Positions 1 through 60,281 of a DNA stretch of 64,000 bases are shown in pieces (positions within the stretch are counted from its first letter, which is position 1; every line of letters starts with the position of its first letter). The position numbers and the translations under genes were made by a program. Under the pieces are notes generated by a model that saw only the letters and a program-made list of their open reading frames with translations, was not told where the DNA came from and made no database searches. This DNA is from Octopus vulgaris. Its lineage: Eukaryota. The stretch lies in NCBI GenBank assembly GCA_951406725.2, contig OX597822.1, positions 14,818,001-14,882,000 on the forward strand. The letters are read 5' to 3'.

Positions 1-412
1 GTTTTAGCCATTAGACTGCGGTCGTGCTGGGCTACCGGCTTGAAGAAGTTTTAGTCGGATAAACCGACGCCAGTACTTATTATATTTTTAAGCATGAGAC
101 TTATTCTATCGATCTCTTTTGCCGAACCGTTAAGTTACGGGGATGTAAGCACAGCAACACTGGTTATAATGTAGTGATGGGTGACAGACACACACGAAAA
201 CACACATACACACACACACTCTCTCTCTCTCACATGGATACACATACACAAATATATAGAGCGGGCTTCCCTTTACTAAATCCACTCAGAAAGACTTGGT
301 CGGTCCAAGACTATTGTAGATGACACTTGCCCAAGGTGCCACGCAGTGGGACTGAACCCGAAACCATGTGGTTGAGAAGCACGTCTCTTACCACACAGCC
401 ACTTTTGCGCCT
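1..412 (-). mobile_element. tRNA-derived SINE, family B (GGCGCAGGAGTGGCTGTGTGGTAAG head), cut by window start
   Basis: Reverse complement matches the full copy at 53096-53517: tRNA-like head, GGCACCTTGGGCAAGTGTC, internal (CA)/(TA) tract, 3' body. Confidence 0.85.
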
Positions 413-526
413 CTTTATATAGGTTTATGTGCATGTGTATTTGTGTTTGTGTTTGTAGGTATATATATATATATATATATAGATATATATATGTATGTAT
501 GCATATAATATATATGTATATATATA

Positions 527-1790
527 TTTTGGAAGAAGCTTCTAACACTGATGTCATATACCTTGATTGCAGCAAGGCATTTGACCGAGTGGACGACAAA
601 ACCCAGCTGAAGAAACTGTCCAACATTGGAGTTCGTGGAAAGCTGGTGCAGTGGATAAAGTGTTTCCTGACGAACAGAACGCAACACGTTGTGCTCGAGG
701 GAATACGATCCAGCTCAGCCAAAGTTAGTAAGTGGTGTCCTACAAGGTGCTGTGTTGGGCCCACTCCTCTTCATTATCTACATCAATGACATGGTGGACG
801 TCATCAAACATTCTACATTGAAAATCTTTGCAGATGATTCCAAACTCCAGAAAGCCATAAGCGGTATGGGAGACAGAACATGCCTTCAGTCGGATCTGTT
901 TACTGTTGTCCAATGGGCGGGAAAAAAACAATATGCTTCTAAATGAAGATAAGTTTAATTTGATCCACTTTGGGAAGGAGGTTACTCTGAAAGTAATATG
1001 TGCCCTTACCTCGGGTGACTCCCTAGTGTCTTCCAACAACACCACAGACCTTGGAGTAACTGTTGATAACAATTTAAGCTGGAGTTCCCATGTAAACACG
1101 AAGGTTGACGTGACCCGCAAGATGTGCTCCTGGATTCTAAGGACTTTCCGGTCTAGAGATGCCCATACTATCATCCTTCTCTACTCTACTTTTGTTTGAC
1201 CGACCCCGCCTTGAATACTGCTGCCCACTGTGGTGGTCTCTCCACACGAAGTAACTCATTATGAAAGTAGAAGTACTCCAGAGGTCCATAACAAGAAAGG
1301 TAGACGGCATGAGATGCATTGATTATTGGGGTCGACTAAGAAATTCAATCTCTACTCTTTCCAACGCCACCATCATTTGTGTGATGTGGAAAACATTCCA
1401 TCAATATTGCACAAATGATATTGGCATCAATTTTAAAATCCATTCAAAACTTGGCCCCCATGCTATACCCCCGCTACAAAATCGATCTCAGGCCACATAG
1501 CAACATTACGTCACAATTACTTTACCTCAACTGGTCCAGCTCCCTTTAATACCAAAATACGTCAAAACGGAAACGGTTCTCATAAAATACAAATGTTCAC
1601 TGGACAAATTTCTTCAAAAAATCCTAGACCAACCTCCTACACCCGGATATGTCTCCAACAATAATAGCTCTTTGTTAGAGTGGGCTATGGTGCCTCATGT
1701 ATGACTAAAACCCTTCCCCAGGTGGTGCTATTAAGTTAGACATGGCCTGGGCTTTTACTGGCCGAAACCTATCAAAGTTATCAAAATTAT
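527..1790 (+). mobile_element. 5'-truncated, frameshifted LINE reverse transcriptase remnant (CR1/L2-like) with 3' end
   Basis: Motifs across frames: DVIYLDCSKAFDRV, SGVLQGAVLGPLLFIIYIND, KIFADDSKL, DLGVTVDNNLSWSSHV, RPRLEYCCPLW. Ends in TATCAAAG-like repeats. Confidence 0.9.
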
Positions 1791-4970: not shown

Positions 4971-5097
4971 TGCTACAGCCCGGGGAGACGTTCAGGGGGA
5001 GTGTATTGTGATGTTGGTCATCTATATGCCATGGAGACCGGGTGGCCGGCCTTGTGAATCGTAGAGCTCAAAGGAAAGTAAGAAAGGAAAAAAATAC

Positions 5098-5865
5098 CTC
5101 CAATAGGTGGTCCGATCAGTGAGCCAATTCCTGTGAAGAACATGAGTAACCCGTATCCAGCTGGTAACTGTTCCACTCCTACCAAACGTACAACAATCGG
5201 TCCTTGGACGGATATATTAGCACCCGTATATAAACCCCAACAAACTGAAAACACAGCTTGCCCCAAATATGTTTGTGCGAATGTTTTGAAAAATAGTGTA
5301 CCAAATCCCAAAACCCCTGATGTACCAAAATATATCACAATGCTGTCAACATTAGAATCATTGGCAGTAATGCCACCCAACAGGCGCCCAAAAATGCTGC
5401 CGATTCCGGCAATGGACAATAAAAATGCAGCTTCGTATTTCGTATGCCCTGTAGAGTTTGAATAATATGGTAAACCTTGGGCGATGAATGTGTAGGCAAG
5501 ATTCCACCAAAGGATGCTCATGATATAGAAATCAAAGGATAAATTCCGGAAAATGGAAGGTCTTTGTGGAATGTTTTCTGCTGCTAAGTATTGTTGTTTT
5601 TTGAAATGTCTTTTCGATCTAATTTCCAATTGATTTGGGGCAATAAGAAGTCCAAAGGCGGAGAAATGCAAGCATACGGCGGAAATTAGCATTAAACCTC
5701 CTTGAAATTGATAGTAGTTGAAGATGTGTTGAATTGCTGGCGGGAAGACTACCATGGCTATACCAGCACCCGAAGTAGCAATACCAGCTGCAAAATAGAG
5801 TCGTTTCTTGAAATAATAACCGAGTCCAACAACATTCAGAGTATAGCAGAATCCATGGCCAATTC
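5098..5865 (-). CDS. Coding exon 3 of MFS monocarboxylate transporter (SLC16/MCT-like)
   Basis: 768 nt with AG acceptor (5866-5867) and GT donor (5096-5097), phase 1/1. Encodes YFKKRLYFAAGIATSGAG, FPP, AAFLLSIAGIGSIFGRL, GLLMFFTGIGSLIGPPIG, all typical of SLC16 TM segments. Confidence 0.93.
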
Positions 5866-6059
5866 CTAAAAGAAATAAGAAAAAAACATAATTATTTGAC
5901 AACTTACAACAGTTCCCGGCATTGCGTGCGTTTATAAATAACTACATAAAATCTCATCAATACCCTTCAGGTTGTCTTCAGGTTGCCTTGGAAGGTTGAT
6001 CCGCTTAGAATTATTCCATATAAACCACCCAGAATGCTTCTTCAAAATAAAAACAAAAT

Positions 6060-6280: not shown

Positions 6281-6884
6281 CCCCTACTCCACCTTCCCTA
6301 TCCTTCCCACCCCTTCCCCCCACTCCTCCCCTACACACCTCAACCCTATTCCACACCTCTCCCCCACATACCTCACCCATATCCCATACCCCTCCCCCAC
6401 ATACTTCACCTCTAACCCCACCCTCTACCTACCCACAACCCCCACTCTACCCCAACCCCTAGCCGAACCCACACACCCATCCCCACATCTCCACACCCAC
6501 ACATACATACACACACACACGTCCAGACCACCAACCTCCTTCACACGCACATACATACTCTCTTATACATACACGCACTTAATGCATTTTGTTTAACAGG
6601 GTCGTATTGGAAGTCACTTGACCCTGTTATCTCCCCTACTGTCCCTCTCGCGTCTGACCACTGTCCGAAGTCAGGACGCCATGATAGATCGTTAGCTCCT
6701 TCACGCATTTTTTTCTCTCCTTGTTTCTCTCCTTGTTTTTTTTCTGTGTATCTTTCTGTCGAAGAGCGTAGGCTCGAAACGTAAAAGACTTTTTCTATTT
6801 CTATTGCTGAGCGCTATACTAATACATTTGTTTGTTTGTACTCCACCTGCCTTCGTCATTTGTTTATTTTCGTAAACTTTCCCG

Positions 6885-6888
<4 letters not shown>
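6281..6888 (+). mobile_element. Solo 3' terminal fragment of the Penelope-like family (C-rich tract plus terminal repeat), ending at (TA)n
   Basis: 6600-6888 aligns by eye to the reverse complement of 34572-34870, the end of the PLE. Both are preceded by a pyrimidine-rich tract. Confidence 0.85.
6751..6788 (+). ncRNA. Minimal type-I hammerhead ribozyme-like motif (A6U core variant)
   Basis: TCTTT-CTGTCGA-A-GAGC(GTAG)GCTC-GAAA-CGT-A-AAAGA: 5-bp stem I, 4-bp stem II, palindromic ACGT stem III, GUA site. Confidence 0.75.
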
Positions 6889-6945
<57 letters not shown>

Positions 6946-7552: not shown

Positions 7553-7855
7553 CTAGCAGTATCGCCCGCCGTTGCTCGGGTTTGTAAGGGAAATAACTAT
7601 ATAAGCATTTTTAGAGAGTTATAGCCAAAAAATAGCAAAAAAATGCATTAAAAATGGAAAAAAAAATGATGGTAATTTTTTTTTTTTAAATCGTAGACTT
7701 ATCGTAGACGCGCGCTAATACCCAGAAGGGCTCGATATGAATCACGACTATAAGATACCCGGTTTTGGTTAAACTGCACCGCAAAATGTGGGAGTAGTTA
7801 GGAATCTAAATCGTAGGAGACAGACAGCACACAACCTTACTTTTATATATAAAGA
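7553..7855 (-). mobile_element. Non-autonomous Helitron (303 bp)
   Basis: Minus strand reads A|TCTTTATATATAAAAG...CCCGAGCAACGGCGGGCGATACTG-CTAG|T: 5' TC, 3' CTAG, subterminal GC-rich hairpin, A|T insertion, no TSD. Ends shared with 57043-57432. Confidence 0.85.
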
Positions 7856-7898
7856 TGAGCTAAATGCATAAAATATATAAAAACGGAGACCAACTTAC

Positions 7899-8042
7899 CT
7901 GCCACTACCCCGAATGTGATATATAGAATGTAGATATTTTTTATGAAAGCACTACTTAGTGATCCAATAAATACCAATAACCCGCCAAAGAATATTGTTG
8001 GTCGACAATGGAAGCGACTGACGACAAGACTAACCACTGGGC
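7899..8042 (-). CDS. Coding exon 2 of SLC16/MCT-like transporter
   Basis: 144 nt with TTTTAG acceptor and GTAAGT donor, phase 1/1. Encodes GPVVSLVVSRFHCRPTIFFGGLL...LYITFGVVAG. Confidence 0.93.
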
Positions 8043-8164
8043 CTAAAATAAAAAAAATATAGAATATGTGAAAACGGTACAAAGTAGGGATTATGATTTG
8101 TATTTAGGTTTGAATTATAATTAAATTGTTCCGATATAATAAATCTTCAGGAATTATTACTTCG

Positions 8165-9295: not shown

Positions 9296-9380
9296 TTTAG
9301 GCTGGTACTTTAATTACAAGCCATTTCTACCTGAATTCTTTATTTCGAAATAAAAATAAATACGTAGAAAGTACATTTAC

Positions 9381-9579
9381 CTATAACTTGAGAACATGCT
9401 ACATGAAGAGAGCCAAGCCAATCTACTTTGATGAGATCTTCTTTAAACTCGTCTAGAATGGCTAGTTTCATTATACCAGTACCATAGATAAACATTGCAG
9501 ATAACATCTGAATAAAGAAACTTGAGATTAACACCATCCATGCCCATCCTGTGTCAGGAGTGTTTCTTGACAAAGCCAT
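9381..9579 (-). CDS. Coding exon 1 of SLC16/MCT-like transporter
   Basis: ATG at 9579. MALSRNTPDTGWAWMV matches the SLC16 N-terminal PD-G-WGW-V motif. 199 nt, GT donor at 9379-9380, phase 1, splices in frame to exon 2. An acceptor at 9616-9617 implies an upstream non-coding exon. Confidence 0.92.
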
Positions 9580-10393
9580 TGTTAATTAACTTCTTAGAAA
9601 GTGAAATCGATAGCTCTGAAAAACAAAAACAAAAAAAAAATCAAATGAAAAATACGTATTATTGATGATGAATGAATTAACAAAGGTCCGAGGGTACCTT
9701 TGTGGATGTGGGTTCAGTTCCACTGCGCGGCAGCTTGAAAAATCGGAGTGAGAAAAAAGAAATGTGTTTGAGAAAAGAAAAACCAAAAACAAAGCCGAAA
9801 GACACTGGCGAAATATTAAGAGCGAGATGTGAATGCGGTTGTATCCTAAGAGGGAGTTGTGTGTGTGTAGAGGTATATAAGTGATGCGGGTCAGTGGGAT
9901 GAAAAATGTGTTTTGTTTCTTCCTTTTTCCTTTCTACACGCATGCATACATTCCAAAACACCACGCCCAAACACCATTCACCCCTTAGGCATATCTCAAA
10001 ATACGGATAATCTCCTACTCAAGCAGGCAACCGCTAGCCATTCTTTCTATCTTCTCCATAGGATTGCATTTTCATCTGGTTTCCAGCCCTTCACCCGTTA
10101 TTTTGGTTTTGACTAATTCTTTTTTCCTTTTTCACAGCCCTCCAATGCTTTTCCTTTCATGAAGAATCAACGTCCGAAATGTTAACATTCCCGCCATTCC
10201 TTTTAAGCATTATGCTAAAACTATATTTGCTAAAACGTGTTCCTCCTGCACTGCCTTTTGCTTAATCTTGTTACTTGCAGCTTAAGCTTTCGTAAGATCG
10301 CTTCAGGAAGCCAGCTCGACCTGCTCAGAATTCGATCTCTGAATCCGATGAGCTGGGGCTGAAGCAAACTGTTTTCAAGAACAATATAAGTAA

Positions 10394-12005: not shown

Positions 12006-12606
12006 TGAGAATGAGAGAGAAAATGAGAAAGAGAGGCAGAGATGGAGAATGCCAATTATTCTATAATACTTCAAATTTGAGCAAGCTGTGAAGGACTTAA
12101 TTAAATACACTGGGGAAATGTAAACAAACGTTTGCACCGTCTCTTTGTGACCGCGAGAAGTTTGCATAGATGTTTGCTTACATTATTTGTCTGAAGTATT
12201 TGATTACGCTCTGCAACCTATACGAAAAGTAGGACTACCACAATACACACACACACACACACATTCATATACTGTAGTATACGCGCACACATACACATAG
12301 ACACACACACACATGCATATACACATACACGCACATGTTCTGTATTTTGTATCTTTTATCTTGTACTTTCTTCAGTCACTGGACCGCGGCCATGCTGAAG
12401 CACCGCCTTGAAATGTTCAGTTGGACAAATTGATCCCTGTACTAATTTTGTCTTAAGTTTGCTAATTATTCTATCAGTCTCTTATTGCAAACCGCTAACT
12501 TAGGGGACTCTAAACTAAGCAACACTGGTTTTCAGGAGATGGAGGGGGACAACCACAAAGACAGACAGACAGAAACACAAACACACATACGTACATACAT
12601 GCATGA

Positions 12607-12645
<39 letters not shown>

Positions 12646-12649
12646 TATA

Positions 12650-12790
12650 TAGTTCAAATTTACAGTAAAGCAAAAGACGCAGAACAACAAGCAGGTGTAT
12701 TAGTTTAACGCTCAGTAAAAATAGAAAAGTCTTTCACGTTTCGAGCCTTCTCTCTTCGACAGAAAGGAATAAGGCAAAAATTAATACGTA
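12650..12790 (-). mobile_element. Short PLE-terminal-repeat relative with hammerhead-like motif at 12731-12766
   Basis: Minus strand CTTT-CTGTCGA-A-GAGAGAAGGCTC-GAAA-CGT-G-AAAG. Flank resembles 6790-6888. Confidence 0.65.
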
Positions 12791-12810: not shown

Positions 12811-13740
<930 letters not shown>

Positions 13741-24781: not shown

Positions 24782-26055
24782 CGAGGGACGTCCAATAAGT
24801 AATGCCCCTGACCCACTTGCAGTTGTTTGATCTAGCATGTGCAATTATTTATATCTCTATAGATTAAGTGGCAAATTACAGCTCTGAACTAATTGTAGTT
24901 TCTGATTTACAGGTGTTTGAACTGAGTCAAGTGTGAAATGGAACCTGTTGAGTGTCGAGCAGTGATCCGGTTTTTGTATTTGAAAGGATGCACAGCACGG
25001 GAGACTTTTGATGAAATGAAAGTAACTTATGGTGAGGATGCCCCATCATATGACCTTGTAAAACGCTGGCATCGTGAATTCAAACATGGTCGGAACTCTG
25101 TGGAAACAGCTCCCAGATCTGGTCGCCCCCCTTCTGCCATTCATGAGGCATCTGTCCGTCAAGTTGAGGCTGCCATTTTGGAAGATCGACGCATAACAAT
25201 TCGCCAAATAGCCCATCAGGTCAAGATTAGTACCGGGTCTGTGGAAACTATCATTCATGACCATTTGCATATGCAAAAGGTGTCTGCCAGATGGATTTCC
25301 AGGTTGCTCACACCTTTCCAGAAGCAAGAACGCGTCAAGTGCTCAAGGATGAATTTGGAGATGTGCCAAGAAGATGAGTCAACATTTTTCAAAAGACTGA
25401 TTACACAGAATGAAACCTGGGTCCATCACTATGATCCAGAGACCAAAGCCCGGTCAATGTAGTGGAAGCACCGTGACTCACCTCCTCCAAAGAAGGCAAG
25501 GGTGCAGCCCTTCGCTGGCAACGTCATGTTCACAGTCTTCTGGGACCAGGACAGAGTAGTGATGACAGATTTCCTGGCAAAGGGTACCACAATTACAGGA
25601 GCCTATTATGCTTCACTTTTGAGGAAATTAAGAGAAGCTATCAAAATCAAGAGGCGGGGCAATATCAGCAAAGACATCCTCCTCCTGCAGGACAACGCTC
25701 CGGTCCACAACTCGCTTGTCGCCAGATCAGAAGCACAGGCGTGCGGCTATGAACTCCTCCCCCATCTCTCCTGACCTTGCACCCTCTGATTTTCACCTCT
25801 TTCCATCCATGAAGTTGTTTTTGAAAGGAAAGCGTTTCCCAGATTGTGCAGCCTTGATTTCTGAAGTCACGTCGTGGTTGGAGGACCAAGCTGGGGTCTT
25901 CTACAAAAACGGTCTCTAGAGCTGCATCAAACGAGGGAAGAAATGCGTAACTCTGGGTGATTCCTATGTAGAAAAAGACTAATAACTGTGCCAAGTTTCG
26001 TTGCTCTACTACTATGGGAAGTGGGTCAGGGGCATTACTTATTGAACGCCCCTCA
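24782..26055 (+). mobile_element. Full-length mariner (DD34D-type) DNA transposon
   Basis: About 38-bp TIRs (CGAGGGACGTCCAATAAGTAATGCCCCTGACCCACTT and its near reverse complement), TA on both sides, about 1.27 kb. Confidence 0.95.
24938..25983 (+). pseudogene. Mariner transposase pseudogene
   Basis: HTH N-terminus, RSGRP, KVSARWI, ITQNETWVHHYDPE, LLQDNAPVH, SPDLAPSDFHLF. Stops near 25460 and 25917, frameshift near 25770. Confidence 0.93.
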
Positions 26056-31437: not shown

Positions 31438-31489
31438 CTGTGTGTGTGTGTGTGTGTTTGTCTGTGTTTGTCTGTGTGTGTGTGTGTAT

Positions 31490-31685
31490 AATGAATCCAA
31501 ACAAAGAAGAACAAACAAGAAAAAACAATCACGCGAGGACGTGGTACAAATACTGTATTATCAGACACTCAGGAAAGAGAGATTTAACGTTTCGAGCCTT
31601 GCTCTTCTTCAGAAATAGAGCAAAGTCCAAAGGAAGGGAAGACGGAGGAAGAAAATCGCCAACGATACGCACGTGGTTACAGAGA
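31490..31685 (-). mobile_element. Diverged PLE-terminal-repeat relative adjacent to (TG)n/(TA)n
   Basis: Layout and short blocks (GTACAAA...TGTATTA...CTCAGGAA; AACGAT) shared with 34572-34770. Confidence 0.6.
31582..31616 (-). ncRNA. Minimal type-I hammerhead-like motif with canonical core
   Basis: Minus: ATTT-CTGAAGA-A-GAGC(AAG)GCTC-GAAA-CGT-T-AAAT. Confidence 0.75.
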
Positions 31686-32614
31686 CCAATTAGAACATTT
31701 TTACTTTGTGGGGGTGGGTGGGTCCATAGTTAGATTTCGAATAAAGGTTCTTCATATCAAATTTGTAGCTTACTATTGCAAGTATTTTATTAAAAATATG
31801 AACATTTTACAGGTATAAGGTGTTATGAGCATTTATAGAACGCAGTCTTATATTAAACTCAACAAACAATTAAAAGCTAAAAGTTTTATAAAATTTTAAT
31901 CCATGCATACGATCGTTTCAAATGATAACACCAGCAAGTAAGAAACATGGAAGAAATTAAATTAATGATAATTATAATTAAATTGATTTAATTACATATT
32001 ACCTATTTCATTACTACCCACAAGGGGCTAAACACAGAGGGGACAAACAAGGACAGACACACGGATCAAGTCGATTACATCGACCCCAGTGCGTAACACA
32101 CACACACACACACACACACATAATTGACTAATGAAAAGAGCCCAAAATTTGAGCAGTGTCGAGAATGTACAGGAGACGGCAACAATGAGAAAAATCAGAA
32201 TGAGAAAAATCAGAAAAAGAATTTAAACGATTTCCATCGACTTACATTTTGTATTCAGAAATCCCGTGCAATAATAATAATAACTTTCAGCAGAAATTTC
32301 ACGTCATAAATAATCAGAGGTAAAGTATTCACCTTGTGTCTTTTCACTTTTAAATCCAACAACTGTAACAATGCTGAAACGCCTAAATTATAACTTCTAA
32401 CTACTGGTTTGACTGAAGCTAATGACACTTCACTTCTGTACTTTACTTATCTGATCAGAGGTCGAGATTTTAGGCTTGTTTCTTATCTTAATGAATGGAT
32501 TACCGATGGTTTCAATAAAGGATAGATAAATCTTGATTAGTTACTGATCAGCATTTCCGGAGCAAAGTCAGTTCGAATGAGACTCCAAAATCAATCACAT
32601 ACACACATATATGG

Positions 32615-32739: not shown

Positions 32740-33130
32740 TTTTCTACTCAGGCACAAGACCCGAAATTGTGGGGGAGGGATCCAGTCAATTAGATCAACA
32801 CCAGTACGTAACTGGTACTTAATTTATCGATCCTGAGAGGATAAAAGCAAACTCGAGCTCGGGGGAATTTGTACTCAGAACGTAAAGACAGACGAAATAC
32901 CTATTTCTTTACTACTCACAAGGGAGGACAAACAAGGACAGACAAGGACAGACAAACAGATTAAGTTGCTTATATCGACCCCAGTGCGTAACTGGAACTT
33001 ATTTAATCGACCCCGAAAGGATGAGAGGCAAAGTCGACCTCGGCGGAATTTGAACTCAGAACGTAGCGGCAGACGAAATACCGCTAAGACTTTCACCCGG
33101 CGTCCTAACGTTTCTGCCAGTTCGCCGCCT
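32740..33130 (-). mobile_element. Dimeric family-A SINE
   Basis: Head at about 33130 and two internal units. Confidence 0.88.
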
Positions 33131-33471
33131 TGGTATATATGTATTTAGAGACACATACAATACGAACTTCTAAGATTTGTGTTATTCAATATTTTAGAGA
33201 TATTTTTTCATATATGATTAATAATTTTTAATTTAAGAAAATCATTCTTCAAATATTGTCACTGAAAGAGAAATCTTGTAAAAAAACACTTGTTTCCTAT
33301 CTTCATCTGTTTTCTCTCCTCATATCATTCCTTAGAAGAGCGTTAGCTCGAAATTTCAAAGACTTCTCCCACTTTTCCTGTGTGTGAAGACTATTACATC
33401 TTGTTTATTGCTCCCCTACCTGTTTCGGCATCTTGTTTTGGGAGTTTTCTACAACAATTTATATATATATA

Positions 33472-33672
33472 TTACGGAGATGTACTTGCATAGCAATTGA
33501 TTTGATCTGAGATCGTGTGCTGGAACGAAAACAATTGCTGCGTGGAAGGTGTTTGTAAGCCATTTAAGAAACACACAAAAGCCGTTCGATTCACTTCAAC
33601 ATTTAAGTTTAATTTGTCAAAATATTTTCGTCGCTATAAGACCGCGACCTGTTCACTGACAAAAATCCGTGC

Positions 33673-33676
<4 letters not shown>
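33472..33676 (-). mobile_element. About 205-bp (TA)n-flanked repeat carrying a hammerhead-like motif; second copy at 13319-13488
   Basis: Near-identical to 13319-13453; (TA)n on both sides. Confidence 0.8.
33613..33663 (-). ncRNA. Minimal type-I hammerhead-like motif, G3-C8 core variant (copy 2, intact stems)
   Basis: Minus: TTTGTCA-GTGAACA-G-GTCGC(GGTCTTATA)GCGAC-GAAA-ATAT-T-T-TGACAAA: 7-bp stem I, 5-bp stem II, AATATT palindromic stem III. Confidence 0.78.
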
Positions 33677-33758
<82 letters not shown>

Positions 33759-33859
33759 AATGCACAACGGATAGAGATCATAAAAATGATGGAGAGTACT
33801 GACTAGCAGCAAATTATGCTAAAATAAGAGTTAAATTAACTCTAAAGCTTTATACTCAA

Positions 33860-34498
33860 TGACTGGCAATGGGAGTTAAGTTCGAATGGTGGATGAACGC
33901 ACACCCGAACAGCTGTTTTACGGTGAACTTGTAGATGCGGAATGCTATAGGTGTAAACCTAAAAAGAGGTTTAAGGACGGTATAAGGACTACCATGAAGT
34001 CCCTTACTTTGGATCAAGCTGGATGGTGGACAAAAGTGTGGAGTGGAATGAAAACGTTTGGAGAGGTCAGGATTACACATGCAAGACCCAAGAGAGATTT
34101 AAAGAAGAATGTTATGACCGAGGTGAATCACAATGACTTTATTTGTGTGTACAGTTTGTGACAGACTATGCCTTTCTTTTACTGGGCTCAAATCTCATTT
34201 GCTGGCCCAGGAAAAACGAACCTCTACCAACTATTCTGCCTATATGTCTGTGCGCACCTTTCAATGCCCTGTATGCCGTAAATACTCAAACCTAATGGAG
34301 GCCTTAAAAGGCATTTTAAGATCCACAAAAATCAGAACTTAGCTGTAGCTCTTGGTGGTCGAAATCAGATATGCAATCTATGTGGGTGTCTTTTCAAGAC
34401 ATTGCCTGGTTTAAAAGGCTACATGAGACGCCATGATGGATCTAGGGTTTAGGTACAGGAGGTGGTCAGACTCTGCATAGTGAGTAGACAACTACTTT

Positions 34499-34500: not shown

Positions 34501-34571
<71 letters not shown>

Positions 34572-34574
<3 letters not shown>

Positions 34575-36868
34575 CGGAAGGTTTACGAAAATAAACAAAA
34601 GACGAAGGCAGGTGGAGTACAAACAAATAATGTATTAGTATGGTGCTCAGGAATAGAAATAGAACAAGTCTTTTACGTTTCAAGCCTACGCGCTTCGACA
34701 GAAAGATGCACAGAAAAGAAAGAAAGAGAGAAAAAAATTGCGTGTAGGGGCTAACGATCCAACATGACGTTCTGATTTCAGAAGTCAGAGATCGGAGGTC
34801 AAACGTTAGAGGTCAGACGTTAGACGCTAGAGGGATAGTAGGGGAGATAACAGGGTCAAGTGACCTCGCTCCAACCTGAAGGTTCGTGTGTGCATAAGAG
34901 AGTATGTATGTGCATGTGGAAGAGGGCTGGTGGTTTGGACGTGTGTATGTATGATGTGATGTGTAATGTCGTATGGTGTAGTGTAGTGTGGTGTGGGGGA
35001 GAGAGGGGGAGAGAAGAAAGGGGATGAGGGGATAGAGGAGGGGGATATGGGAGGAGGAGGAGGGAGAGGAGAAGGAAGGAGAGGAGGAGAAGAAGAGAAG
35101 GAGGAGAGGAGGAGAAAGAAGGAGAGAAGGAGAAGGAAGGGGAAGGGGAGGAGAAGGGAGGGGAGAAGGAGAGGAGGGGAGAGGGAGAGGAAGAGGAGGG
35201 AAAAGGAGGGGAGAGGGAGCGCAGGGGAATGGAGGGGAGAGGGAGAGGAGGAGGAGGGGAAGAGAAGGGGAGTGAGGGAGCAGAGAGAAAGAGAGAGGGG
35301 AAGAGGGAAGAAGAAAGAAGAAAGAAGAAGAGGGAAGAATGGAAAGGAGGGAAGAGGAGGGAAAGAGAGTAGGGGTGAAAAGATGAAGGACTGAAGAGAA
35401 GTAGGAGTCGGAGGGTGGGTTAGATGGAAAGGGGGGAGAGTTGAAACCAAATGGCGTAAAAGAGCGAAGAGAGAAGATTAATCTCTGTTCACGGCGCAAA
35501 CGGGAATCCGGATGGCCTCTGTGCAAGGACAATCCGAATACAGACAGGTGTTCCAAGGAGTGACCGGTGGAGCGGAAATGGCGTGAGACCGATGTATCGT
35601 TGGCAAGGCGGATGTCTCGAAGGTATTCCGCGAACCGGTCAGCCAAGCGGCGTCTCGTTTGTCCGATGTACAGGGAATGGCAGAGAGAGCAGGAGATGCA
35701 ATAGATGATATTGCTGGAGGTGCAGGTGAAGGAGTCGAGGATGCGATAGGGTCGGTGATGGGTGCCAGTGAGGAGGGTGGTGTTGGAGAGGTAAGGGCAA
35801 GTGCGGCAACGTGGGCGGGAGCAGGGGAACGAGCCAGGCTGGGAGGTAGGGTCAGGGAAGAAGCTGTGGACCAAGAGGTTTCGTAGGTTATGGGCTCGTT
35901 TGAAAGAGGGGAGGGCTCGGTTAGGGAAGAGGTGTGAAGTGGACAGGTCAGACTGGAGATGCCGGAAAGCTCTAAGAATGGTGCGTTGGAGAGGTAGGGT
36001 CGTGGGGTGGTAAGTGAGGGGAAAAGGGAGGCGGGACACTACAGGGCGGGTTCGGGGGAGAGAGCAGATGCACGGTCTACGGAACGTGCAAGGGCGGTGT
36101 GGATAGTGGTGAGGGGATATCCACGTAGGATGAAGTGGCGAGCCATGAGTTGAGACTGAGTCTCAAAGTCATGATCGTCACTACAGAGCCTACGTAGACG
36201 GAGGAATTGGGAATAGGGGATGGAAAGCTTAGTGTGTTTGAGGTGGGAGGAAGAGAAGTTTAGGTATGAGTGTGAGTCTGTGTGTTTGTAGTGAATGGAG
36301 GTGGTAAGAGTGGAGTGATGAATGCTGACCGAAATGTCGAGGAAGGAGACAGAGGTGTAGGAGATAGTGGAGGTGAAGTGGATGGCAGGATGGAAGGATT
36401 GAACGAAAGAGAGGAAGGAATCTAGATGTTCACGGGAGAGTGAGGTGGCACCGATAATGTCGTCAATGTAACGACCGTATAGTTCGGGAGTGGAACCAGT
36501 GAAATTAGAGAATATTTGGGCCTCAACATAGCCAACGAACAGGTTCGCATAGTTGGGGCTCATTCGCGTTCCCATGGCCACTCCCGAGATCTGTTGGTAG
36601 AACTCACCCGCGAACGAGAAACAGTTAAGAGAAAGACGAATGAGTGTGGAGGTGTCGGGTTCAGGGTTGGGGCGGAGGTCGAGAAAGTATTGAAGTGCCT
36701 GCAGTCCTTCGTGGTGAGGGATGACGGTATAGAGGCTCTGGATGTCCATAGTAAAAAGGATTTTGGAGGAGCCGGGAGGAAAGGAGAAAGAGTTGAAAAG
36801 CCGGAGAGCCTGGTTGGTATCGTGGATGTGGGAGGGAAGAGACGCCACTAGGGGGGCAAGGACACGTA
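34572..36868 (-). mobile_element. 5'-truncated Penelope-like element (RT plus C-terminal GIY-YIG, Neptune-like Cys linker) with pyrimidine-rich 3' region and terminal repeat
   Basis: RT motifs LFTMDIQSLYT, GVAMGTRMSPNYANLF, YGRYIDDI, SFLDI; linker CSRPRCRTC; NIIYCISC...LYIGQT...REQRLI. One frameshift near 36055. Ends at (TA)n. Confidence 0.95.
34669..34706 (-). ncRNA. Hammerhead-like motif in the PLE terminal repeat (A6U core, damaged stem II)
   Basis: Minus: TCTTT-CTGTCGA-A-GCGC(GTAG)GCTT-GAAA-CGT-A-AAAGA. Confidence 0.65.
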
Positions 36869-36966
36869 GAATACACTTGTACAAGGTGCCATGCAGTGGT
36901 ACTGAACCCAGAACCATATAGTCGGGAAGCAAGCTTGTTACGTTACTACACAGCCACTCCTGCGCC
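36869..36966 (-). mobile_element. Family-B SINE head abutting the PLE 5' truncation
   Basis: GGCGCAGGAGTGGCTGTGTAGTAA...GGTTCAGTACCACTGCATGGCACCTTGTACAAGTGT. Confidence 0.85.
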
Positions 36967-48575: not shown

Positions 48576-49453
48576 CATGCAGGCAATAAATAGACACCTT
48601 TAATTTTGAAAATTTCTGATCAAAGTGTCTTAATATGTTTTCAGCGGAGTAGAATTTACAATGTAATTATTCTTTTTCATTCCAGGTGCCATTATATTAA
48701 ACATTTGCAAAGAGTAACCATGCGACGCATGGTTTTCAAAAAGGTCGTATTGTTGGGCAATCTGAAGCTGGTCCAAGCCAGCGAAAAATTGCCAAAAGTC
48801 TTCAAATTCCTCTTGCTACTGTTAATAGAATTATAGTGCAATTCAAAAGCCAAGGAAAAGAATCAACAGATTCTCGTCCCAGCCGACCTGCGCCCTCGGA
48901 AAGGAAGCTTCGCTGTTTGAAGAGAATTGTGGAAAACGAACCCCGTTCGAAGGTTTCTGACATTGCGAAACGTTAGTCCAAGTTAGTCCAAGAACGTGTG
49001 TTACATATCTGCATAAGCTTGGGTACTATGGACGAGCAGCTAGAGGAAAACCTCTCCTTCAACCAATTAATATCAAGAAAAGAAAGAAATGGGCAAAGGA
49101 GATGTCAGAAAAATCCAGTTCATTTTGGGATAGAGTGATTTTATCAGATGAATCCAGATTTGCATTATTTTCAGACAGTGGATGTGTTTGGGTCTGGAGG
49201 CTTCCCAGTCAATAATTTGATTTGAAACGTCTCCAACCAACAATGAAACATGGCGGTATCTCAGTAATGGTATGGGGAGCTGTCACCAGCAATGGTCGTT
49301 CCGAGCTGATCGAATGTGTTGGAACCATAAACTCTGAAAAATACATCGAAATACTTAAGCAAGGACTATTTCCGATGTATTCATACGATTACATAACGAA
49401 AAATGAGTTTTTATTCATGGAAGATGGGGCTCCATGCCACACTGCGAAAATGA
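48570..49453 (+). mobile_element. Truncated Tc1-like transposon with decayed transposase
   Basis: Begins after (TA)n. HTH region (FQKGRIVG...[20 protein letters not shown]), [39 protein letters not shown]. Third catalytic residue and right TIR are missing. Confidence 0.9.
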
Positions 49454-49711
49454 AGATATAAGACTAAAAGCTGTCGCTGATTAGCTCCATGAGGCCATCG
49501 CCTTAAGATAACTATATGACACACAAACTGTGTCCATTAGAACCTTCGAACAAGGGAGGTCAGCCGCCGTCTGTAGCTGTCTGACTAGCAGTGTGAAGCG
49601 GCTGACCTCCCTTGTTCGAAGGTTATAATGGACACAGTTTGTGTGTCATATAGCTATCTTAAGGCGATGGCCTCATGGAGCTAATCAGCGACAGCTTTTA
49701 GTCTTATATCT
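49454..49711. repeat. Long inverted repeat: 114-bp arms, 30-nt loop
   Basis: 49454-49567 is the reverse complement of 49598-49711, with about two mismatches by eye. Confidence 0.95.
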
Positions 49712-58999: not shown

Positions 59000-59590
59000 G
59001 CGGATTTCAGGAAGCACGGAAATTTTGAAGGATGTAATGTCTCGACAGCTAACGACTGATGCGTAAAGTTTATTCCATGCTTCAACAATTCTGAGCGTGA
59101 AAAATGTTCCCGAAAGTCATGAATGTTGTGTTATTTTTTTGATTTTGTGAGCATGTCTGCGAGTGTTTGTTATATGGAACTCAAAAAGGTGCTCAAGGTT
59201 GTTGTTGGAAAGATGGTGGATGGTCCCGTGGGTGTCTACCAAGTCAGTTGCCAGATGTCTGAGTTTCAATGTATCCATGCCCAGGGAAGTAAGACGTTCA
59301 GAGTATGGTAGGTGCCTGACGGTGGGTATTTGTTTAGTTGCACGTTTCTGAACAGTTTCCAAGAGACTTATATGCTCATGAAGAGAGGGGTTCCAGACTA
59401 TTGATGCAAATTCTAAGTGTGGGAGATACAGCTTGATATCATCTGCATATTTCAGCACCGTAACATTCTTATAGTTGGCATCTATGTCATTAATATATGC
59501 AACAAACAGTAGGAGTTCTAGAACGGATCCCTGTGGTGCACCAGAAGTCATCTCGTAGGCTGAATAATGATTTCCTAGAATCGTAACTAC
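59000..59590 (-). mobile_element. CR1-like LINE RT remnant with internal deletion
   Basis: SGAPQGSVLELLLFVAYIND and KYADDIKLY joined directly to PHLEFASIVWNP, then LETVQKRATK and PYSERL. Confidence 0.88.
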
Positions 59591-60281
59591 TAATTTATAT
59601 AATATTATATTTAGAGGCATTGATTTGTAGGGATGGAGTCTGTTGGAGCATATAAGTGTGTATAAGAGCATGTGAAATTGTATATACAAAGATGTGAGAG
59701 TGCGTGTGTGGGCGTGGAAGAAAAGGAACTGAAGAAGTACATGGAATAACAGAAACAAGGTGGAAAGATGTGTTATCTGTATGTGTCAGTGTTAAAAAAA
59801 GTAAGTGTGGGGCGAGAAGTTTCTTTTTTCAGGTTTGCAATTGGAAAAGAATGAAATAAAGTTTATTCGAAAGTGAAAGGAAAAGCGTTTTGAGAAATTC
59901 GAAATCCGAGATGAAAGGAAATGTCCAAGAAGTTGGTAGAATCCACGAAAATGATAAAAAGTTCAGAGATATTAGTAAAGATTTCAGAAGAAAGTGTCTG
60001 AGGGAGACCTTACAATCCAGGGCGAAGATACAAGAACGTGAAAGCAAAAAGGAAAAAAAGCAAGAAGTTATTAAACACATGGTACAGGGAAGGCAAAAAA
60101 ATGGCAGACGGCGGTGACAGAGAACACACACGTACATACTCGTACACACGCACACAGACATTATATATTTATTAATTTTATCTCATTCCCACACATATAA
60201 CACACTCACAAATATATACTCACACTTCTGTATAATTTTAAAATGATGTTTGAGCAAACGGATATAATCTCGATTTTATTG

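Follow-up and report, generated by a model that had tools for sequence, protein, structure and literature searches.

What is the 205-base sequence that interrupts a (TA)n tract of the Octopus vulgaris genome and carries a predicted hammerhead ribozyme with the two bases of its 3–8 pair exchanged? A preliminary description had proposed either a small non-autonomous retroelement bearing its own ribozyme or the solo terminal repeat of a Penelope-like element (PLE). We examined the element in its genomic setting, a 64,000-nucleotide stretch of contig OX597822.1 (hereafter the window), and in short-read contigs from several organisms.

A hammerhead motif with an exchanged 3–8 pair

All the hammerhead parts previously claimed for the minus strand of 33472..33676 are present there, and the ends given for the element are right to within 1–2 nt (33471–33677, ambiguous with the TA flanks). 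The motif is composed as follows:

33613..33663 (−): type I minimal hammerhead motif with a G3–C8 core, as located by motif scan
33657..33663 (−): stem I 5′ strand, following a U-run and preceding G3; its possible likeness to a splice acceptor is a lead
33650..33656 (−): core GUGAACA, with G3 at 33656, C8 at 33651 and A9 at 33650
33630..33649 (−): an extra G (33649) and stem II (5 bp), whose 9-nt loop varies at two positions within the family
33620..33629 (−): G12-A13-A14-A15.1 (GAAA, 33629–33626), palindrome AAUAUU (33626–33621) and U17 (33620)
33613..33619 (−): stem I 3′ strand, in which a common change at 33617 converts a U-A pair to U.G

Stem I consists of seven Watson–Crick pairs (33663–33657 with 33619–33613) and stem II of five (33648–33644 with 33634–33630), the extra G at 33649 between A9 and stem II having been missing from the earlier account. 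The core elements U4 G5 A6, A9, G12 A13 A14, the A15.1–U16.1 pair and an NUH site are all in place, together with both stems and the palindromic 15.1–16.1 stretch AAUAUU; from the hammerhead numbering, the cut is predicted to fall between 33620 and 33619. The 3–8 pair is Watson–Crick, in the form of G3–C8, in both window copies and family-wide; the literal consensus C3 and G8 (CUGANGA) is absent. Rfam yielded no hammerhead family among the 150 listed of 179 matches to the window, and the element alone, searched at an E of 10, gave two matches, neither of them a hammerhead. Given the GUGAACA core and the lack of an Rfam match, we refer to the hammerhead as a variant. The motif is nonetheless confirmed as a real feature: a relaxed search for type I hammerheads of minimal form, open to any Watson–Crick 3–8 pair, picked out three in the window and not one in any of 40 block-shuffled versions of it, and 199 of 200 shuffles fold less well than the 53-nt motif (z −2.99). 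The fold of the whole element is on par with its shuffles (z 0.16).

There are two copies of the element in the window, both solo rather than in tandem and both ending at the identical 5′ base. Together with their flanks they comprise these features:

33471..33677 (−): probable solo pLTR of a Penelope-like element, made up of a 114-nt leader and ORF codons 1–31; ends ambiguous by 1–2 nt with TA
33471..33533 (−): optional tail of about 62 nt between the two 3′ ends found among copies (loose ends at 33471/33472 and 33534)
33460..33472 (no strand): (TA)6 at the 3′ end of the element
33676..33719 (no strand): (TA)22 at the 5′ end of the element, then (GT)n
13318..13455 (−): copy 2, tail-less, with the same 5′ end, G3 at 13434 and one stem I mismatch
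13454..13490 (+): inverted 5′-truncated piece of tail attached where copy 2 has its 5′ end, an inverted-end signature of PLEs
13041..13063 (−): 23-nt fragment that follows (TA)25 and shares the tail-less 3′ end

Copy 2 has six bases deleted from its first 30 nt, is without the last 61 nt, and bears an inverted 35-nt piece of that absent end. It keeps stem II with a changed loop, as had been reported, but one broken stem I pair had been overlooked, and stem I does not form in the predicted structure of this copy. The same loop recurs at the head of a group of ten loose-end contigs in run X4 and is for that reason likely to be real. Wedged between the 23-nt fragment and copy 2 is an inverted duplicate, 13064–13276 (+), a reversed repeat of 12447–12703 that over 254 columns has lost 42 bases, gained none and differs by a single mismatch. 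This is probably unpolished long-read sequence and possibly a templated insertion; since copy 2 starts beside this unpolished-looking stretch, we regard it as a weak witness.

The stretch or a part of it is contained in 21 of 24 runs, 17 of which hold half or more of its words; we analysed four, one for each of the coded organisms A–D, leaving out the small-share runs X20–X24. Contigs of at least 80% likeness number 7,337, 14,625, 10,054 and 6,475 per run, at a cut-off that would leave out more distant sister families. The family exists in thousands of copies or more, as an order of magnitude only; depth, which is not itself a copy number, sets bounds of about 1,200 to 180,000. In the four runs 34 variant rows reach 3% or more; not one of them falls in 33647–33663 or 33618–33629, and the 5′ strand of stem I, core positions 3–9, the GAAA, the palindrome and U17 are free of any variant at that level. 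G3–C8 is thus the state of the family, and the retention of G3, C8 and GAAA among copies, on which the preliminary description had let its reading depend, extends across all four runs. Ten sites are polymorphic at 8–92% in every run; only two of them lie within the motif, 33617 (a U.G wobble in stem I) and 33638 (in the loop), and both leave the structure intact. Structural changes in the family are only one-sided or in the loop. Chance alone would keep all ten out of the 15 core positions with P 0.46 and out of the core plus stems with P 0.12, one site in fact being in stem I; with such values (P 0.12–0.46) the pattern of variation fits selection on the ribozyme without demonstrating it. CpG sites, those of stem II included, decay at about 2–8%, which is the expectation after insertion.

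Several further observations concern the reach of the family. Behind 33664, three runs have 39–49 contigs that depart from the element immediately 5′ of stem I and continue in partly common sequence, possibly a sister subfamily or a longer parent leader. Family-specific patterns recovered no loci in metagenome, prokaryote-genome and viral contigs. A looser G3–C8 pattern gave 119 metagenome loci in 14 of 64 collection parts, which we rejected as relatives: none has both stems of at least 3 bp, the pair checked by hand is bacterial coding sequence, and four PLE proteins match none of them. Finally, no tRNA was found in 33000–34200, and there is hence no tRNA-derived SINE head in that interval.

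The start of a Penelope-like reading frame

The element had been taken to be non-coding. This view has to be given up, as its last 93 nt are codons 1–31 of an Octopus protein:

33471..33563 (−): codons 1–31 of the parent PLE ORF, with an in-frame TAA directly before the ATG

By itself, an open frame of 31 codons is weak evidence, arising in 1,735 of 20,000 shuffles. Searched against 1.84 billion proteins, the 31-codon peptide has three matches, one of which runs from Met1, namely P0141 of Octopus bimaculoides (E 5.8e-4); the other two, P0139 and P0140, were dropped as repeat-driven chance matches. P0141 in turn led to two longer proteins among 340 candidates. In P0142 of O. sinensis, 28 of 31 residues are identical to the frame of the element and the protein extends beyond its last codon; P0141 continues like P0142 past codon 31, so that two species agree, and two of the three differences from P0142 are private to the window copy. 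Residues 74–223 of P0142 share 79% identity with P0144 of O. vulgaris, which aligns over 402 columns (E 4e-8) with a PLE protein possessing both RT and GIY-YIG. Moreover, a profile of 40 long PLE proteins matches P0144 with an E of 1.7e-18 and also P0142 and P0141 at about 5e-6, values that refer to a file of three sequences. The alignment of P0144 with PLE proteins spans the GxKF-like, DKG-like and first RT-aspartate-like motifs, named in part after PMC8557442. The five common variants within the frame comprise three silent changes, one K/R and one S/F, with no indel listed.

Pfam reported no RT in P0144, PDB gave no useful match to it, and the atlas offered no useful neighbour of P0141 (best 0.75). 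Both P0143 and P0144 stop short of the GIY-YIG region, and the proteins recovered include neither a GIY-YIG nor a YxDD region for the family. In P0142 the N-terminal PLE part is fused to a methyltransferase-like exon, probably as a gene-prediction chimera, a real exonisation also being conceivable. The link to the ORF is one of protein to gene models rather than of DNA to DNA, full-length parent DNA being absent from the sequences seen. With codons 1–31 matching the PLE-related P0142, the element is consequently read as a solo pLTR, that is, a leader plus the start of the ORF. The second of the two original proposals, a solo PLE terminal repeat in TA microsatellites, is supported by the ORF link, the (TA)n flanks, the two 3′ ends and the inverted tails. 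We hold it probable that the 205-base element is the solo pLTR of an octopus Penelope-like retrotransposon, a judgement that covers the whole explanation, including the run-off origin proposed below.

It had also been stated that no coding partner is visible in the window. This is correct for the parent ORF, which was not found beyond codon 31 within the 64 kb, but not for PLEs as such, as a PLE ORF lies only 0.9 kb away at about 35430–36820 (−). It is part of a 5′-truncated PLE (34570–36880 (−)) with a frame change within, which ends in (TA)n and displays an RT (PF00078), a CX4CxxC linker that appears by motif to be Neptune/Nematis-like, and a GIY-YIG region with 48% identity to that of P0028. 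Its pLTR belongs to a family, A6U, with three occurrences in the window (also at 6535–6889 (+) and 12696–12766 (−)) and with a minimal hammerhead of its own, of core CUGUCGA, which is clearest at 6756 (+). We rejected this neighbour as the parent: its pLTR reaches a similarity score of 19 against a shuffled mean of 17.3, with 70 of 300 shuffles as good, and its RT relatives are only about 22–27% identical to P0144.

A third PLE-type end at 31480–31720 (−) carries a canonical minimal hammerhead (core CUGAAGA at 31612, ACGU palindrome), which is 85% alike to the A6U family motif over 34 nt. The tailed end at 33471 and two A6U-family ends (34574 and 6885) all terminate in CCGT and one further base ahead of (TA)n, which is perhaps a shared signal for the start of reverse transcription and perhaps chance; other ends differ. 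The rest of the window features exons of a monocarboxylate (MFS) transporter at 5021–5941, 7843–8103 and 9340–9585 (−), the first with 92% identity to an Octopus bimaculoides transporter and the last two recognised by translation only. There are also Tc1/mariner transposase remnants at 24926–25919 (+) (PF17906, PF01359) and 48701–49461 (+) (translation only), and LINE RT remnants at 376–1200 (+), 33880–34161 (+) and 59117–59785 (−), with a weak PF00078 match at 671–943 and the others by translation only.

A proposed origin of the solo copies and the predicted state of the ribozyme

The copies have two 3′ ends. One lies at codon 31, with loose ends at 33471/33472 in 45–72 contigs per run, and a second near codon 10, seen at 33534 in run X3, in copy 2 and in the fragment at 13041. 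Copies also have a preferred 5′ end, which is shared by both window copies and by five of the six opposite-strand joints listed, these falling at 33673–33677 and coming from different inner points; because the reference stretch stops at 33677, loose ends, though not direct joints, are biased towards that position. These joints are among 15 joints and 12 spacer rows listed, besides which a further 45 joints and 1,023 loose-end rows exist. An inverted joint at 33621, only 1–2 nt from the predicted cut (four contigs in two runs), is not counted as evidence of cleavage, because other inner joints are equally common.

According to PMC8557442, where the legend of Fig. 2 gives the inverted arrangement, PLE insertions are marked by truncated ends in inverted orientation, by optional tails and by (TA)n targets; here copy 2 bears an inverted 5′-truncated copy at its 5′ end, six opposite-strand joints are listed, and two 3′ ends occur. 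In vitro work on an Anolis PLE (PMC11167929) reports that reverse transcription starts 111–118 nt inside the ORF at two sites bounding the tail, that cDNA length tracks the 5′ end of the RNA, that targets are AT-rich, and that the hammerhead is protein-assisted and dispensable for insertion. In D. virilis, the pLTR of the Penelope element contains an internal promoter (PMC2377424). We propose a course of events along these lines. An internal promoter would start transcription near 33677, and the parent protein would nick AT-rich DNA and initiate cDNA synthesis either at codon 31 or close to codon 10. On an RNA starting at 33677, the cDNA would run off after about 207 or 145 nt and leave a solo copy in (TA)n; on a tandem read-through RNA, the same start would yield a copy of the whole element. 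The hammerhead, for which slow cleavage dependent on a dimer or on the PLE protein is predicted, would leave most templates uncut; a cut, where it occurred, would take off the 5′ 58 nt, 56 nt upstream of the AUG. The solo copies would then be run-off products of ORF-internal reverse transcription, an account to which, with a transcription start that is postulated, the probability given above for the whole explanation applies. The tail of 62 nt counts against it, exceeding the usual 30–40 nt.

As to cleavage itself, the C3G/G8C double swap had been said to restore the catalytic 3–8 pair. Activity is regained, but only in part (PMC11167929, PMC8495972). In our models the double hammerhead has a free energy of −25.4 kcal/mol, as against −24.8 for two monomers and −30.6 for a competing dimer; G3 is predicted to be paired with a probability of 0.87–0.91, its partner in the best structure being U17, and the all-A-U palindrome AAUAUU contributes a mere −0.2 kcal/mol. 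The G3–U17 pairing resembles an inactive C3–G17 form discussed in PMC3884650, where a G3–C8 variant is also reported to work better with G17 than with C17. Together, the A-U palindrome, the little gained by dimerization and the G3–U17 pairing suggest that the hammerhead would be slow. The genomic copies retain the leader 5′ of the cut site, which means that their templates were uncut. We lean modestly towards predicting real, if slow and assisted, cleavage.

The strongest competitor shares the pLTR origin and differs over the ribozyme, which would be a dead or near-dead relic whose swap hitchhiked with a parent not needing cleavage. Such a relic would readily account for the retained leader, for the absence of 33619/33620 from the best-supported loose-end rows listed, and for the want of a significant sign of purifying selection; the possible G3–U17 pairing and the weak AU-only palindrome are likewise in keeping with it, as is the finding that hammerhead mutants left insertion of the Anolis PLE unaffected in vitro (PMC11167929). 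Yet two simultaneous changes that restore the 3–8 pair would be hard to obtain without past selection, the remaining core bases and both stems are intact, the two common variants within the motif (33617 and 33638) preserve its structure, and the double mutant is partly active in a PLE hammerhead (PMC11167929). We regard the relic as a serious but minority possibility.

One further feature touches on the swap. A U-run followed by CAG at 33656–33667 (−) resembles a 3′ splice site, the G of the CAG being G3 of the hammerhead; no splice donor site was found inside the element. It is conceivable, though improbable when taken as one joint proposal, that the swap is functional, with G3 doubling as the last base of a splice acceptor and C8 co-selected for the 3–8 pair, such that splicing would disarm the ribozyme. 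As part of the same proposal, splicing would drop the 5′ strand of stem I and G3 from the translated mRNA, and unspliced templates would keep an active G3–C8 hammerhead invisible to CUGANGA searches. We raise it on two grounds, the likeness of the sequence and the intron of D. virilis Penelope that ends at helix I.

Returning to run-off as the preferred origin, the alternative at the head of the preliminary description was a separate non-autonomous element, SINE-like or retrozyme-like, that is recopied from the 205-bp copies themselves, possibly via circular RNA. The very high copy number and the preferred 5′ end would suit such an element, as would the few go-back joints (e.g., 33666 to 33543, at a depth of 1,588 in X3) and the proposal that animal retrozymes are PLE derivatives (10.64898/2026.07.22.740005). 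However, both window copies are solo and the 15 joints and 12 spacer rows listed include no dominant unit-length head-to-tail joint, for which reason we do not favour this alternative. The fold of the element (z 0.16) likewise differs from the highly self-paired circles described for retrozymes (PMC7229834), and its ORF start is open with variants that are mostly silent or conservative, as coding parents would give. All told, an independent element is unlikely.

Marginally less likely still is ordinary random 5′ truncation, by which the copies would derive from the downstream pLTR of full-length elements and 33677 would be an accidental stop. PLE insertions are mostly 5′-truncated (PMC8557442, section 6), and loose ends behind 33677 begin alike across runs while a second group exits at 33664, which together point to longer forms. 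An accidental stop, however, sits poorly with two of two window copies stopping at one base, with five of the six inverted joints listed falling at 33673–33677 despite differing inner points, and with a mixed loose-end consensus (agreement 0.43–0.45). As for a chance likeness to a hammerhead or an assembly error behind the G3/C8 swap, which the missing Rfam match and the partly unpolished-looking sequence near copy 2 might have suggested, the empty shuffled windows and the agreement of both copies with the short-read contigs of all four runs at G3 and C8 refute it to the point of near-certainty, and the motif sits directly 5′ of an ORF start, the usual site of PLE hammerheads.

Comparison with known systems

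The closest counterparts of the motif are the minimal type I hammerheads in the pLTRs of metazoan PLEs (Cervera and de la Pena 2014, PMC4209133), which have the same type I layout with no real stem III, a palindrome for dimers, an extra base after A9, G10.1–C11.1, and U-rich and AU-rich flanks, and whose copies are mostly solo. In the supplement to that paper, the Drosophila Penelope hammerhead combines a 6-nt AU palindrome with U17, and that of a Crassostrea PLE has a UUU site, both as here. The 3–8 pair is where the octopus element, with G3–C8, departs: in the 44 rows of Fig. S3 that were examined, C3 occurs in 41, U3 in three and G3 in none, under descriptors that demanded a CUGANGA or U3–A8 core and so excluded G3. 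Likewise, all 34 hammerhead rows of File S2 in PMC8557442 are C3–G8, again under descriptors that leave no room for G3. Covariation of the 3–8 pair in nature is itself on record, in the form of U3–A8 hammerheads (Perreault et al. 2011, PMC3088659; also PMC4209133). These differ from the C3–G8 consensus by two transitions, whereas the octopus G3–C8 is a purine–pyrimidine swap requiring two transversions, and its G3 can mispair with position 17.

In the geometry of its pLTR and ORF start, the element is most like Poseidon of Anolis carolinensis, PAc (Frangieh et al. 2024, PMC11167929), a likeness that within Penelope/Poseidon extends to this geometry only. In both, the pLTR overlaps the start of the ORF, an optional tail lies between two starts, targets are AT-rich and the hammerhead is near the start codon. 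The copies end inside the ORF at about +111–118 in PAc and at +93 and about +30 in the octopus element. The PAc hammerhead overlaps its start codon, whereas the octopus cut site lies 56 nt before the start, with a tail of about 62 nt; the PAc core is naturally C3–G8, its G3–C8 form being a partly active laboratory mutant only.

The octopus PLEs Hydra-1_Obim, Naiad_Obim and Naiad_Ovul (Craig et al. 2021, PMC8557442) share with the element a (TA)n preference, inverted ends and tails. In the supplement of that paper, five DNA motifs of the element have no true match, the one 10-letter chance match being to unrelated GC-rich sequence, and three protein motifs of its ORF have no match. Animal non-LTR retrozymes (PMC7229834; 10.64898/2026.07.22.740005) resemble it in being short, high-copy and PLE-related, with a type I hammerhead; they are, however, described as non-coding tandem units forming self-paired circles, whereas the element is solo, contains an ORF start and is not unusually folded. 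Retrozyme identity was rejected on this basis: head-to-tail units are seen neither in the window nor as a dominant joint among those listed, rare arrays being possible, and an element that carries the start of an ORF is not non-coding.

A natural G3–C8 core common to a whole PLE family would thus appear to be new, in that the literature searched contains neither a natural G3–C8 hammerhead nor an account of this element. Small variants of PLE hammerheads are reportedly the subject of work by Lunse, Weinberg and Breaker from 2017, and Przybilski and Hammann are said to have studied 3–8 exchanges in vitro in 2007. The search extended neither to the 2017 work of Lunse et al. nor to Arkhipova et al. 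2017, both of which may bear on the matter. If the ribozyme cleaves, the family would provide a natural test of the hammerhead 3–8 pair in an orientation otherwise known to us from laboratory mutants only, and genome surveys built on CUGANGA would miss whole PLE families. If it does not, it would be a clean example of a PLE that has spread widely with a crippled ribozyme, bearing on the purpose of PLE hammerheads. Through its link to the ORF start, an otherwise anonymous repeat of the octopus would become a record, left in vivo, of the internal initiation seen in vitro with one lizard PLE, and the link would offer a simple reason why PLE hammerheads are mostly solo.
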